From IMG/VR virus record IMGVR_UViG_2541047784_000010, positions 1-40,741 of that record: a stretch of DNA of 40,741 nt; one strand, 5' to 3'. Source of the DNA: a virus (Duplodnaviria; Heunggongvirae; Uroviricota; Caudoviricetes). Position 1 is the stretch's first letter; each line of letters starts with the position of its first letter. A program made the translations under genes and the position numbers. Below the pieces are notes generated by a model, which made no database searches, was not told where the DNA came from, and saw only the letters and a program-made list of their open reading frames with translations. This document shows, piece by piece, positions 8,195 to 12,896 of the stretch.

Positions 8195-8854
8195 TTAACT
8201 AAATGTCTCTTCAGGCCACTGGCTGGCGATAACTTTCCCTACTACGGAACAGCTATCATTGCATGGGATCATTGGATATTGCGGGTTTAGTGGTTGTAGG
8301 AACACCTGACCGCTATCCCTGATCAGTTTCTTGAAGGTAAACTCGTCACCACCAAGTCTGGCTATGCAGAAATCACCTGGCTCAACAGCCTGCTCAGGGT
8401 CAACGAGAATTAACATCCCGTCAGGAAAGCTTGGCTTGGATCCTGTTGGTGCGGTCATGGAATTACCTTCAACTTCAAGCCAAAACGCACAATCACTGGC
8501 TTTTTTGGTTGTGCTGACCCATCTCTCCGCATCACCTTTGGTAAAGGTTCTAAGCTCAGGCGAGAACATCCCGGCCTGAACATGAGAAAAAACAGGGTAC
8601 TCATATTGTTTTTTAACGGGGGCAGATGAGTATTCGCCAACAGGTGAAAATGTACCGTCGTGGTTGAATGAGACGTTATCAATACCAAGGTATTTAAACA
8701 CCACACCAATCTCGTCAAGAGATGGATGACGAGATCCGCGCAACCAGTGACCAATTCCACCCTGCGTCATACCAAGCTCTTCAGCTAACTTCTCTTGAGT
8801 TATGCCGAGTTCTTTCATTCTGGATCTAGCCAGTTCATACCATTTCATTTTCAT
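8195..8854 (-). CDS. cI: CI-type immunity repressor (LexA-like S24 peptidase C-terminal domain)
   Basis: C-terminal ~130 aa match my recollection of lambda CI nearly residue for residue ([19 protein letters not shown]...[13 protein letters not shown]...[27 protein letters not shown]), including Ala-Gly cleavage site and Ser/Lys dyad; N-terminal HTH is unrelated to lambda; start set at MKMKWYEL with AAGGAT RBS. Confidence 0.9.
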
Positions 8855-8966
8855 ATCCTTATTATTACGCTCTGTACTAAAACCATCCATGCACAAGATG
8901 TATTTTTTTGTTTGCATTCCAAAAGTACATATCGTATTATTGTTTCATGGTTACTATGGAGGGCAT
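8855..8966. promoter_or_regulatory. OR region: divergent PR/PRM with operator sites (putative)
   Basis: PR TTGCAT-N17-TATTAT on plus strand ~25 nt before cro RBS; operator-like motifs ACAAGATGTAT and ACATATCGTAT (latter in PR spacer) shared with OL. Confidence 0.6.
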
Positions 8967-9291: not shown

Positions 9292-9588
9292 ATGGAACAA
9301 ACAAGTTACAGCAAACTATCACAGCGCGACGTTGATCGCGCAGAAACAGATTTACTCATCAACCTGTCAACGCTTACCCAGCGCGGTCTGGCAAAGATGA
9401 TTGGCTGTCATGAATCGAAGATCAGTCGTACCGACTGGCGGTTTATTGCTTCGGTCTTGTGTGCTTTCGGAATGGCATCAGACATCAGTCCGATTAGCAG
9501 GGCTTTTAAGTATGCGCTTGATGGACTCACCAATAAAAAACGCCCGGCGGCAACCGAGCGTTCTGATCAAATACAAATGGAATTTTAA
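9292..9588 (+). CDS. cII: CII transcriptional activator
   Basis: 98 aa; C-terminus LTNKKRPAATERSDQIQMEF is essentially lambda CII (ILTNKKRPAATERSEQIQMEF); HTH region KISR conserved. Confidence 0.85.
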   Translation: MEQTSYSKLSQRDVDRAETDLLINLSTLTQRGLAKMIGCHESKISRTDWRFIASVLCAFGMASDISPISRAFKYALDGLTNKKRPAATERSDQIQMEF

Positions 9589-9610: not shown

Positions 9611-9883
9611 ATGCGAAACAAAGGCTTTAATCCACCTGATACACACAAAGAAGCTAAGCGTTTGCGCTTCCTTCGTTCCATTGATGAAAGAACTCAAATC
9701 TCTTTTGTGAAAGTTGCCAGAACTGAGCTTCTGAAGGCTGAGGCGAGGGCGTTGCTCCCGTCTCTACCAAAAGAGGAGGGATATACGTTCATTCCAAACG
9801 CATTTCTGGAAAAGCTTCTCAAAGAAGACATATCCGTAAGTCAGTTTAACGATGTTCTTAAGGTCTTTCGTCAAGGCAGGTAG
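9611..9883 (+). CDS. Hypothetical protein (90 aa) between cII and replication genes
   Basis: In-frame ATG at 9611 within longer track ORF 9401-9883 that overlaps cII; RBS GAGG upstream. Confidence 0.45.
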   Translation: MRNKGFNPPDTHKEAKRLRFLRSIDERTQISFVKVARTELLKAEARALLPSLPKEEGYTFIPNAFLEKLLKEDISVSQFNDVLKVFRQGR

Positions 9884-9885
9884 TT

Positions 9886-10833
9886 ATGAGCAATACAGCA
9901 AAAATCTACGATTTCAGCGCCGCACACGAGCGCAGGAGCAACAGGATGGAGAACCAGAAAACTGGTTACATTCCGTTGTACCGGAGCATTCTGAAACAGT
10001 CATGGGCGAAAGATGTTTATCTTCGCACCCTGTGGGAAAACCTTCTCCTGAATGCTGCCAGAAAGCCATACAAAGCGAATTTCAAAGGTCATGAATGGCA
10101 TCTGCAACCCGGTCAACTGGTTGTGACAGCAGCTGATTTAGGTCTTCAGTTATGCGACAGGCATGGCAAGCCGGCAAGCCGTGATCAGGTTGAGCGGATG
10201 CTTCAGGTTTTTGTGAAAGAGGGGATGATCTCCATTGATGGAGAGAAGCAAAAAGGTCGTGTGATCACCATCACAAATTACCATGAATATGCTCAAAAAA
10301 TGGACGATTCACCCGCACATGAAGCCGCACAAACAACCGCACATGAAGCCGCACATGATGAAGCCAGTAATGGCGCGGCTTTCAGCGTACATGCCACACA
10401 TGAAAGCGCACATGAAGCCGCACAAACAACCGCACATCATGAACAAGAAGGTATTAACAAGAATATAAATAATACCCCCCTACCCCCCAATGGGGGAGGC
10501 GATGGGCAGGTTAAACCTGAACGTCGCAAGGCAGAACGAATCGACTACGAATCCTTCCTGAACGCCTACAACACCGAAGTCGGTGACAGACTGCCACACG
10601 CTGTTGCGGTCAACGAGAAACGAAAACGCCGCCTGAAGAAAATCATCCCGCAACTGAAAACGCCAAACGTTGACGGTTTCAGAGCGTATGTCAGGGCGTT
10701 TGTGCATCAGGCTAAGCCGTTTTACTTCGGAGACAACGACACGGGCTGGACGGCCGATTTTGATTACCTGCTGAGGGAAGACTCGTTAACGGGAGTTCGG
10801 GAAGGGAAGTTTGCAGACAGGGGGATTGCATGA
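9886..10833 (+). CDS. O: Replication initiator, lambda O / P22 gene 18-like
   Basis: 315 aa; position after cII; central His/Ala-rich repeats encoded by DNA iterons (ori inside gene, as in lambda O); basic C-terminal part. Confidence 0.75.
10310..10500 (+). repeat. Origin of replication: iterons plus AT-rich segment inside O gene
   Basis: Three or more copies of CGCACATGAAGCCGCACA within 140 bp, followed by AT-rich AAGAAGGTATTAACAAGAATATAAATAATA and C6/G5 tract. Confidence 0.7.
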
Positions 10834-12206
10834 GACAGGATATCGAAGCGAGCGTTATCGGTGGCCTGCTGATTGGTGGATTAACTCCAACCGCCAGCGA
10901 CGTTCTGGCAACGCTGGAGCCGGAAGCGTTTTCAATTCCGCTCTACCGGAAAGCCTTCGAGGTTATCCGCAAGCAGGCGCGAAACAGAAACCTAATCGAC
11001 GCACTGATGGTTGCCGAGGCGTGCGGAGAGGAGCATTTCACGTCAATCCTGATGACCAGCAAAAACTGCCCGAGTGCCGCAAACCTGAAGGGATATGCCG
11101 GAATGGTCGCGGATAACTATCACCGCCGTCTGGTGCTGGAAATCATGGATGAAATGCGTGAACCAATTCAGAGCGGAACCATCGACGCATCGAGTCAGGC
11201 GATGGATGAACTTGTAAAACGTCTCTCAGCCATCAGAAAGCCCCGTGACGAGGTAAAACCTGTACGGTTAGGGGAAATCATTACTGACTACACTGACACG
11301 CTTGACAGGCGTCTGAGGAACGGAGAAGAGTCAGATACCCTGAAGACCGGAATCGAAGAACTTGATGCCATCACCGGAGGGATGAACGCGGAAGACCTGG
11401 TGATTATCGCTGCTCGTCCTGGTATGGGGAAAACCGAGCTGGCGCTGAAGATTGCCGAAGGCGTTGCAAGCCGCGTTATTCCTGGTTCTGACGTCCGGCG
11501 CGGGGTATTGATTTTCTCAATGGAAATGAGCGCATTGCAGATTGCAGAGCGAAGCATTGCCAACGCCGGGAGAATGTCGGTTAGCGTGCTGCGAAATCCT
11601 GCATCGATGGATGACGAGGGCTGGGCACGTGTTGCTAACGGCATGAGTCAGCTTGCGGATTTGGATGTATGGGTAGTCGATGCCTCGCGGTTATCGGTCG
11701 AAGAAATACGCTCAATCGCAGAACGGCACAAACAGGAAAATCCAAACCTGTCACTCATCATGGCGGATTATCTTGGCCTGATTGAGAAGCCGAAAGCAGA
11801 TCGCAACGACCTCGCAATTGCTCACATCTCCGGAAGCCTTAAGGCGATGGCGAAAGACCTGAAAACGCCTGTTATCTCCCTGAGTCAGCTTTCACGCGAT
11901 GTTGAGAAGCGACCAAACAAACGCCCGACAAACGCAGATTTGCGTGATTCAGGAAGCATTGAGCAGGACGCAGACTCAATCATCATGCTCTATCGGGAAG
12001 CGGTATATGACGAGAACAGTAGCGCCGCGCCATTTGCTGAAATCATTGTGACGAAAAACCGTTTTGGCTCGCTTGGTACGGTTTACCAGCGGTTCTGTAA
12101 CGGACACTTTGTTGCATGTGACCAGGATGAAGCCAGACAGATTTGCACAGCATCAAATGCACCTGCTGCGCGTGGCAGACGATATGCACAAGGGGCGGAC
12201 GTATGA
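10830..12206 (+). CDS. DnaB-family replicative helicase (P22 gene 12-like)
   Basis: 458 aa; Walker A ARPGMGKT, DnaB C-terminal motifs; ATGA overlap with O-like gene. Confidence 0.9.
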
Positions 12207-12284: not shown

Positions 12285-12896
12285 ATGCGAATAAAAAAAC
12301 TAATTGATCACGATGAGCTTCTGTCAACATTATCATATGACTCAGAAACAGGAATATTTAAATGGCTAAAAACAAATTCAGTAGTAAGAGTAAAAGGTAG
12401 TATTGCTGGAGGTGTTAGTGGTGGTTATATATGCATTAGCATAAATAATGTTTTGTATTATGCGCATAGACTTGCTTGGTTCTATGTATACAAAAAATGG
12501 CCTCCTAAGTTTATTGATCATGTAAATGGGAACAGACTTGACAATAGGATTTCAAATCTAAGACTGGCAACAGAAGAGCAGAATGCAAGAAACATTGTAG
12601 GGAATAGATTAAACACATCCGGTGCAATTGGAGTGTCTTGGTATAAGCCAACTGGCAGGTGGAAGTCTTATGTTGGTTATAAAAATAAGACAATATCGTT
12701 AGGGTATTTCGATAGCAAAGAAGATGCAGCATTCATAGCAGCACTAGCAAGAAAGAAACTATATGGAACTTATGCGAGTAAAGCACTTAATTGCGAGCAT
12801 GAGCTTTTATCTCAATTTAATAATGATGAGGATAAACTTGCGGAATATCTTAAGGAAAAATCTAAAAGGACTCGAAAGCGTGTTAAAAACAGATAA
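12285..12896 (+). CDS. HNH endonuclease with AP2-type DNA-binding domain (homing-endonuclease-like)
   Basis: 203 aa; HNH_3-like motif AHRLAW...FIDHVNGNRLDNRISNLRLATEEQN and AP2-like GVSWYKPTGRWKSYV; low GC; own terminator. Confidence 0.8.
   Translation: MRIKKLIDHDELLSTLSYDSETGIFKWLKTNSVVRVKGSIAGGVSGGYICISINNVLYYAHRLAWFYVYKKWPPKFIDHVNGNRLDNRISNLRLATEEQNARNIVGNRLNTSGAIGVSWYKPTGRWKSYVGYKNKTISLGYFDSKEDAAFIAALARKKLYGTYASKALNCEHELLSQFNNDEDKLAEYLKEKSKRTRKRVKNR

Follow-up and report, generated by a model that had tools for sequence, protein, structure and literature searches.

It is well established that the initiator genes of lambdoid and P22-like phages contain iterons whose sequence is type-specific. 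The origin of lambda lies in the linker-coding middle of gene O and comprises four O-binding iterons, each of 18 bp, palindromic and evenly spaced, followed by a purine-rich AT block and an inverted repeat. The N-terminal domain of O sets origin specificity and the C-terminal domain sets the partner, here the P protein, which captures host DnaB. Iteron number is variable (four versus six in Stx phages). In P22, the annotated rep_origin is found in the middle of gene 18 (NC_002371 32840-32984), where four ~20-bp repeats with dyad symmetry (GATTCGGTAAA...TTTACC) precede an AT block and a C5-6...G5 inverted repeat, and the partner is the DnaB-type helicase of gene 12. The rep_origin of HK620 (HK022-type) is annotated within the O gene as two joined pieces (NC_002730 10369-10464) and holds two clusters of 11-nt head-to-tail repeats (core TACCAGCA, 3+3 copies), ~36 nt apart and without palindromic iterons, then an AT block and a perfect 10-bp inverted repeat; its partner is a DnaB-type helicase of 478 aa. 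These three annotated origins occupy an equivalent position in the initiator gene and share the order of repeats, purine-rich AT block and inverted repeat. An ori has also been predicted, from sequence alone, in gene 18 of phage L, with six imprecise 11-bp repeats TGTCCAACGGA, and type-specific iterons inside initiator genes are stated there for lambda, P22 and L (PMC8022706). For lambda and the Stx phages, iteron number has been described as naturally variable, with the AT-proximal iterons sufficing (PMC7466680).

The window analysed here, a stretch of 40,741 nt in all, derives from a P22-like (Lederbergvirus-type; CUS-3/Kapi1-type) E. coli phage or prophage and is ~97% identical, in a mosaic fashion, to vB_EcoP-611R6, Kapi1, Gally, CUS-3 and HK620. 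A short repeat array lies in a standard lambdoid early-right region. This contains a cI-type repressor gene (8195-8917, minus strand), cII (9292-9588), a cro-like gene listed between the two, a 90-aa ORF (9611-9883) immediately 5′ of the initiator gene, the initiator gene itself (9886-10833, plus strand, 315 aa) and, overlapping its end, a gene for a 458-aa DnaB-type replicative helicase (10830-12206, plus strand). The helicase was assigned from Pfam (DnaB_C, E = 9.5e-78; DnaB N-terminal domain, E = 4.5e-13) and is the predicted partner of the initiator; this is not the O/P module of lambda, as the downstream gene does not encode a P-type loader. The 90-aa ORF was considered as a second O-like protein and rejected, its Pfam match being sub-threshold (E = 0.048). 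GC skew was likewise discarded as an origin marker: the cumulative minimum falls at 8-10 kb, but is uninformative because gene direction changes between leftward and rightward at the same place.

Positions 10313-10496, where the initiator gene codes for a flexible linker, are very probably the replication origin of this phage, as judged from the sequence comparisons presented below. The initiator matches Phage_rep_O (PF04492) at residues 20-132 (E = 3.4e-15, 56.8 bits against a cut-off of 28.7), and the profile is covered end to end (positions 1-95 of 95), which places the protein in this family. It also matches the PHROG 'replication initiation O-like' (E = 1.7e-99) and is ~98% identical to the annotated replication protein O of CUS-3, JEP4, Gally and Kapi1. 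The same initiator gene of 948 nt, ungapped, is present in the records of Kapi1, JEP4, HF4s, CUS-3 and Gally, together with those of ~48 Stx2a phages. The label 'O-like', given to the gene in the preliminary description, thus holds at the level of the family. However, similarity to lambda O itself is marginal (residues 1-65, E = 0.004), the C-terminal half resembles P22 gp18 (53% identity, E = 2e-51, aligned over residues 167-309) and the partner is of DnaB type. Identity to HK620 O is 26% over the full length, and the N-terminal domain is unrelated to that of P22 at the BLAST level.

The initiator gene can be divided into a region encoding the N-terminal DNA-binding domain (9886-10312, plus strand), presumed from the structural model and from co-variation with the repeats to read the iterons, and a region encoding the C-terminal domain (10497-10830, plus strand), which, from the model and its identity to P22 gp18, presumably recruits the helicase. 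An AlphaFold2 model built from a shallow alignment (29 sequences, pTM 0.36) has a folded N-terminal domain at residues 31-137 (block mean pLDDT 69-89) made up of helices and a beta hairpin, and a helical C-terminal domain at residues 217-306. Residues 138-216 have a pLDDT below 50 and are predicted to be disordered. The predicted origin, taken from the first repeat to the G5 tract, corresponds to codons 143-204 and falls between the two domain-coding regions. As all of the residues it encodes lie inside the disordered segment, the protein probably tolerates a sequence dictated there by the DNA. A Foldseek search of the model against the PDB gave no match at E ≤ 0.001. The weak matches (E = 0.07-0.3) were mostly to winged-helix regulators, which is consistent with, but no proof of, a DNA-binding N-terminal domain.

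The preliminary description had noted direct repeats occurring at least three times within about 140 bp, and indeed CGCACATGAAGCCGCACA is found exactly at 10314, 10338 and 10407, with a fourth match (three mismatches) at 10395. Four matches compare with a mean of 0.07 in shuffled versions of the window, and none of 100 shuffles reached four. Tandem Repeats Finder and a repeat search, the kind of check that had been proposed, both give a period of 12 nt. The repeats are therefore real, but the unit has to be redrawn: rather than three copies of an 18-mer, the array is made of eight 12-nt direct repeats with the 8-nt core CCGCACAT, arranged as two clusters of four. Cluster 1 (10313-10360, plus strand; core CCGCACAW) consists of CCGCACATGAAG at 10313, CCGCACAAACAA at 10325, CCGCACATGAAG at 10337 and CCGCACATGATG at 10349. 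A spacer of 33 nt, AAGCCAGTAATGGCGCGGCTTTCAGCGTACATG, follows (10361-10393, plus strand), and then cluster 2 (10394-10441, plus strand), which adjoins the AT block and consists of CCACACATGAAA at 10394, GCGCACATGAAG at 10406, CCGCACAAACAA at 10418 and CCGCACATCATG at 10430. No other tandem array in the 40.7-kb window exceeds two copies, and the core in the form CCGCRCAW occurs six times in the array versus three times in the remaining 40.6 kb. A unit of 24 nt is disfavoured by the cluster sizes of 3, 4, 5 and 10 units seen in relatives. Read in frame, the units specify residues 143-185 of the protein (315 aa), so that the His/Ala-rich peptide previously ascribed to the repeats is indeed their product.

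None of the 12-nt units has internal dyad symmetry and the reverse complement of the core is absent from the array. Hence these are not lambda-type iterons in the strict sense (about 18-19 bp with dyad symmetry), being 12 nt long and placed head to tail. The lack of symmetry in the style of lambda and P22 counts against an origin, as does the spacing of 12 bp, which is tight for one protein domain per unit. A further CCGCACA lies at 9920, close to the beginning of the gene; as neither Mulock nor the Yersinia phage conserves the corresponding peptide, it was put down to chance. The possibility that the spacer forms a hairpin was also considered; its folding is not better than that of shuffled sequence (z = +0.38), comparison of the putative arms by eye across phages was inconsistent, and the idea was dropped. 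Within the predicted origin, a promoter and terminator scan returned nothing convincing, the two weak terminator-like matches being the repeats themselves.

Directly after cluster 2 comes the presumed DNA-unwinding element, an AT-rich block of 33 nt (10442-10474, plus strand) that forms a dip in composition, with six G/C (18% GC), and whose top strand is 73% purine. It is succeeded by the G+C-rich inverted repeat CCCCCCTACCCCCCAATGGGGG (C6TAC6AATG5; 10475-10496, plus strand), at which the predicted origin ends and the P22-type C-terminal module starts. The AT-rich block followed by a C6...G5 tract, as first described, is thus present as stated, and the AT-rich element lies promoter-distal to the repeats. 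At 33 nt the block is short, which counts against an origin. The hairpin formed by the inverted repeat is weak (-6.6 kcal/mol) and is not significant by shuffling (z = -1.4); the equivalent inverted repeats of lambda and HK620 give z = -3.6 and z = -5.0. Nevertheless, CCCCCCTACCCCCCAATGGGGG matches ACCCCCTTACCCCCTAAAGGGGG, the element that closes the annotated rep_origin of P22.

Selection on the DNA and selection on the encoded peptide can be told apart by the phase of the repeats. To this end, 42 units were compared from six type-A phages whose N-terminal domains are 72-98% identical to that of the window: the window itself, Salmonella prophage L089, Citrobacter prophage L092, Klebsiella phage Mulock (L083), Yersinia phage vB_YenM_29.18 (L084) and a K. 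michiganensis prophage (L091). Unit positions 1-8, which form CCGCACAT, carry 1.35-2.0 bits each, compared with 0.3-0.7 bits at positions 9-12. Since the unit begins at codon position 2, the conserved 8-mer takes in three wobble positions, while first and second codon positions are among those that vary. At the first codon of the unit, seven different codons specify six amino acids (P, A, T, S, G, C), yet 42 of 42 end in C, whilst 29% of the Ala, Pro, Thr and Gly codons outside the cores of the same genes do so. At the second codon GCA is used in 33 units and GCG in six, compared with a share for GCA of 21% among Ala codons elsewhere. His is encoded by CAT in 33:0 cases within cores versus 34:10 outside (p = 0.004). 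Such p-values are optimistic, because units within one phage are not independent, and wobble positions could be made uniform by duplication or gene conversion in the absence of selection. The encoded peptides vary between phages (AHEA, AHNT, ALKP, AHMP) while the core persists. On this codon-level evidence, the core is conserved in a way opposite to that expected from selection on the protein, and selection acts on the DNA and not on the peptide. The Ala-His dipeptide that the core encodes is as conserved as the core itself, an observation that counts against an origin.

A similar picture comes from closely related genes. Seventy-eight genes, that of the window and others from IMG/VR loci, whose N-terminal domains are at least 99% identical, were collapsed to 66 distinct genes of 948 nt, and nucleotide diversity (pi) was compared between segments. 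The spacer is the most polymorphic part (0.069), followed by the tails of the units (0.050), the C-terminal domain (0.019) and the iteron cores (0.0087); the C6...G5 element has one polymorphic site (0.0014) and the AT block has none (0). Cores are less polymorphic than tails and spacer (Fisher p = 1.6e-4; non-singleton sites, 1.2e-6), and the AT block with the C6...G5 element is less polymorphic than the C-terminal domain (p = 0.003). The linker-coding region is therefore hypervariable, and the cores, AT block and G+C element are conserved islands within it. Polymorphism in the repeat region has a pattern like that of gene conversion. That the spacer is hypervariable in close relatives counts against an origin. 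The conservation also extends deeper: in Citrobacter, Klebsiella and Yersinia homologues, synonymous third positions of the N-terminal domain are 52-71% identical to those of the window and the cores are kept, and over the AT block and its preceding CATG 30-36 of 36 nt are identical.

Moreover, the repeats co-vary with the N-terminal domain. Where this domain is 72-98% identical to that of the window the CCGCACAT core is kept, in a 4+4 or 3+3 arrangement, and the spacer measures 33 nt in all six type-A phages compared. The K. michiganensis prophage, with an N-terminal domain 75% identical, has CCGCGCAT in five of its six units, a synonymous site having changed in concert. When identity drops to 47-51%, as in Enterobacter phage ENT1 and a contig labelled 'Staphylococcus phage SA 1298 Kay', the repeats are unrelated (CGTCGAA... 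and C[CG]CGATRA at a 12-nt period, respectively), and the layout is as in the window, with a similar spacer and AT block. The 5′ half of the spacer recurs in both of these, whose repeat types differ from that of the window. The type of C-terminal domain and partner varies independently. An identical type of N-terminal domain, repeats and AT block is joined to a P22 gp18-type C-terminal domain and a 458-aa DnaB-type helicase in the window and the Citrobacter prophage (with the same C-terminal domain in L086), to a lambda O-type C-terminal domain and a P-like partner in Mulock and the Yersinia phage, and to an HK620-type C-terminal domain and a 478-aa DnaB in L089, a natural hybrid that has the window-type N-terminal domain and repeats; L091 has a P22-like variant of the C-terminal domain without the TPLPP motif. 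P-like partners were seen only in relatives with the lambda-type C-terminal domain. The junction between modules lies within or just 3′ of the AT block. These comparisons of sequence point to the classical lambdoid rule, in which the N-terminal domain and origin form one specificity cassette and the C-terminal domain travels with the helicase or loader.

The number of units differs among relatives with the same N-terminal domain. Single clusters of 3, 4 or 5 units, pairs of 3+3, 4+4 or 10+4, and forms with three or four clusters were all found, and 4+4 is the commonest among database relatives. The gene is ungapped at 948 nt in JEP4, CUS-3, Gally and HF4s, which were compared over its full length. 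Copy number always changes in multiples of 12 nt, and the 33-nt spacer may or may not be included (blocks of 81 or 93 nt). A four-unit, single-cluster variant (L094) is equivalent to cluster 2, the AT block and the C6...G5 element of the window, in a replication module that looks intact; single-cluster variants equal to cluster 2 were found in two genomic contexts. The three-cluster form also occurs in an intact-looking module. A three-unit single cluster (P0045) was rejected as a minimal origin, being from a deleted prophage in which a truncated helicase gene is fused near the portal gene.

Among described systems, the locus comes nearest to those of P22, HK620, lambda and phage L. With P22 it shares a location in the central part of the initiator gene, the order of repeats, AT block and C5-6...G5 inverted repeat, a C-terminal domain that is 53% identical, and a DnaB-type helicase gene of 1377 nt in both, in the same gene order; the difference is that P22 has four ~20-bp repeats with dyad symmetry and the window eight 12-bp direct repeats. 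With HK620 it shares an origin in the O gene, two separated clusters of short head-to-tail repeats without palindromes, an AT block containing AAGAATATAAnAATA and then an inverted repeat, and a DnaB-type partner, but the core, the period (11 nt), the copy number, the perfect right-hand inverted repeat and the type of helicase all differ. Phage L, set beside the window by its description (PMC8022706), is alike in having short direct repeats in a P22-like initiator gene, and differs in repeat sequence and initiator type. The preliminary description had recognised the architecture of the lambda ori. This is correct for the layout, with its location in the linker-coding middle of the gene and its order of elements, but does not extend to the units, which have no dyad symmetry, unlike the 18-bp iterons of lambda and those of P22. 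Lambda also shares the parting of specificity and partner between the two domains, and a naturally variable number of iterons. It had also proposed that the iteron sequence is different, and neither lambda-type nor P22-type iterons occur anywhere in the 40,741-nt window. Their absence, together with the other repeats carried by relatives with other N-terminal domains, supports the further suggestion of a distinct ori specificity, at least as far as sequence can predict it.

Three alternatives to this origin were weighed. The repeats could be a mere low-complexity, His/Ala-rich linker expanded by slippage, with the similarity in DNA reflecting recent duplication and the true origin lying elsewhere. 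The in-frame 12-nt period, the conserved Ala-His dipeptide, the predicted disorder of the encoded segment and a copy number that ranges from 3 units to four clusters, as slippage or unequal crossing-over predicts, would all suit such a linker. It does not account for a conserved 8-nt block that is out of codon phase and spans three wobble positions whilst the amino acid of codon 1 varies, nor for peptides that differ between phages keeping the core, an adjoining AT block that is invariant without being repetitive, or a repeat type that switches with the type of N-terminal domain. Moreover, the window has no further repeat array, and the annotated origins of lambda, P22 and HK620 are at the equivalent place. 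We consider this explanation highly improbable. Binding of the initiator mainly for control (titration, origin pairing or incompatibility), or a role of the repeats as a recombination hotspot for module exchange rather than as the start of unwinding, is the least probable of the three. Module junctions do concentrate at the AT block, pairing between the two separated clusters is conceivable, and polymorphism in the repeat region looks like gene conversion. However, an invariant AT block and an inverted repeat follow directly on the repeats, an order shared with mapped or annotated origins, and the window has no other array resembling an origin. Control functions, moreover, usually come on top of origin function and do not substitute for it.

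The third alternative concerns how much of the array is needed. The working origin may comprise only the proximal cluster (10394-10441) and the AT block, with the distal cluster and spacer being a dispensable 81-nt duplication or accessory or regulatory sites. The variant reduced to cluster 2, AT block and C6...G5, present in intact-looking modules in two genomic contexts, points this way, as do single-cluster forms in the Citrobacter lineage and the 'SA 1298 Kay' type (P0095, P0106) and the hypervariability of the spacer. In lambda, two iterons and the AT-rich region are reported to be enough for unwinding and for replication in vitro (PMC7466680). On the other hand, two-cluster forms dominate the database (409, 294 and 1458 member sequences, versus 23-61 for single-cluster forms), the named phages compared over the full gene are all of the two-cluster form, and two clusters with a 33-nt spacer recur in the Klebsiella, Yersinia and Citrobacter lineages. 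The extra iterons of Stx phages, although weakly bound, are reported to be needed in vivo (PMC7466680), and the one-cluster prophages may not be viable. We think an origin confined to the proximal cluster rather unlikely.

If 10313-10496 is the origin, then by analogy with lambda and P22 the winged-helix-like N-terminal domain would bind the eight head-to-tail CCGCACAT cores, one per 12 bp, in two clusters of four. The resulting nucleoprotein complex would destabilise the adjoining 33-bp AT-rich block, and the P22 gp18-type C-terminal domain would bring in the phage's own DnaB-type helicase, which is encoded directly downstream. Rightward early transcription from pR, by which the initiator gene would be expressed, would also cross the origin. 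A more tentative suggestion is that the initiators of the window, HK620/HK022 and ENT1 bind as monomers, head to tail, on repeats of 11-12 bp in two clusters, possibly bridged across the semi-conserved 33-bp spacer. In this they would differ from lambda and P22, with their dimers on palindromic iterons. Should the monomer arrangement be true, the in-frame 12-nt period would let the origin gain or lose sites (3 to 16 in relatives) with the initiator gene intact, and origin strength would be an easily evolvable trait.

The predicted origin is an ordinary feature and leaves the established picture of lambdoid origins unchanged; the sequence of its binding sites is, however, unannotated in public records. 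Neither the CUS-3 nor the Kapi1 record has a rep_origin feature, and the repeat type is unannotated in the records of close relatives that were inspected. The 18-mer CGCACATGAAGCCGCACA was not found in the literature searched. Publications on the iterons of P22 gene 18, on lambdoid O paired with DnaB and on the replication regions of Stx phages yielded general statements and lambda-type Stx origins, with nothing on the CCGCACAT repeat, and a paper on Stx phage replication regions does not discuss this repeat type. What is added here is a concrete candidate origin, with a putative recognition core of 8 bp, for a replication module unannotated in the records inspected. The module is widespread, being found in P22-like prophages of E. 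coli and Salmonella and in ~48 sequenced Stx2a-converting phages. Its use would lie mainly in annotation, but also in constructing origin-plus-initiator plasmids, in predicting the replication compatibility of co-resident lambdoid prophages, and in studying replication in relation to the biology of Shiga toxin phages. The locus also illustrates cleanly, in nature, how constraint at the DNA level bears on a protein-coding linker, and how an initiator and its iterons co-vary.

In the window, the repeat array lies within the O-like initiator gene (9886-10833) as eight 12-nt units in two clusters (10313-10360 and 10394-10441). Prophages of E. coli and Salmonella carry in-frame variants that differ in copy number, the smallest with a single cluster of three units and the largest with four clusters (proteins P0001, P0010, P0038, P0042, P0045, P0054 and P0068; loci L090, L094 and L096). 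Their lengths change by multiples of 12 nt, to which the 33-nt spacer is added in some cases. Comparison of the linker-coding region (10306-10441) with loci L003-L082 reveals that it is a polymorphism hotspot, nucleotide diversity being 0.05-0.07 vs 0.019 in the C-terminal domain of the initiator. Some of the variants in this region, e.g. those in L029 and L034, look like gene conversion between repeat units.

Among close relatives, polymorphism peaks in the inter-cluster spacer (10361-10393), despite the recurrence of its 5′ half, AAGCCAGYAATGGCGCGGCTTT, which encodes the peptide SNGAA, in phages with unrelated repeat types. HK620 carries this half in part (AAAGCCAGCAAT). Folding of the spacer (10361-10393) as a hairpin was not convincing. 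The spacer was compared with those of Klebsiella phage Mulock (L083), Yersinia phage vB_YenM_29.18 (L084), L085, L086, the K. michiganensis and Citrobacter prophages (L091 and L092, respectively) and L002 (8700-8736). L086 is a 2.7-kb contig (OR850084.1) labelled 'Staphylococcus phage SA 1298 Kay', which encodes an enterobacterial lambdoid initiator with a C-terminal domain nearly identical to that of the window. The Staphylococcus label is almost certainly the result of contamination or mislabelling.

Upstream of the initiator gene, a strong intrinsic-terminator-like hairpin on the minus strand (9537-9564; a stem of 12 pairs and then a run of T) overlaps the 3′ end of cII, the site of the oop antisense RNA terminator in lambda and P22. 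Between cII and the initiator gene lies a plus-strand ORF of 90 aa (9611-9883) that matches PHROG 2519, a family of unknown function (E 1.9e-57), and whose C-terminal third resembles the start of Phage_rep_O only below threshold (E 0.048). This ORF is kept beside the window-type initiator in Kapi1 and several prophages. Shortly 3′ of the helicase gene, the translation of a plus-strand ORF of 203 aa (12285-12896) includes an HNH-like motif, HVNGNRLDNRISNLRLATEEQNARN, pointing to a possible nin-region insertion of the homing-endonuclease kind.

A single CCGCACAC is found early in the initiator gene, towards its 5′ end (9920-9927), where it encodes the peptide AAHE. It is probably a chance occurrence, since neither Mulock nor the Yersinia phage has conserved the homologous peptide. 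Within the K. michiganensis prophage (L091, 1834-2000), CCGCGCAT replaces CCGCACAT in five of the six repeat units. This change is concerted and falls at a synonymous position, and may be a marker of shifted initiator specificity.
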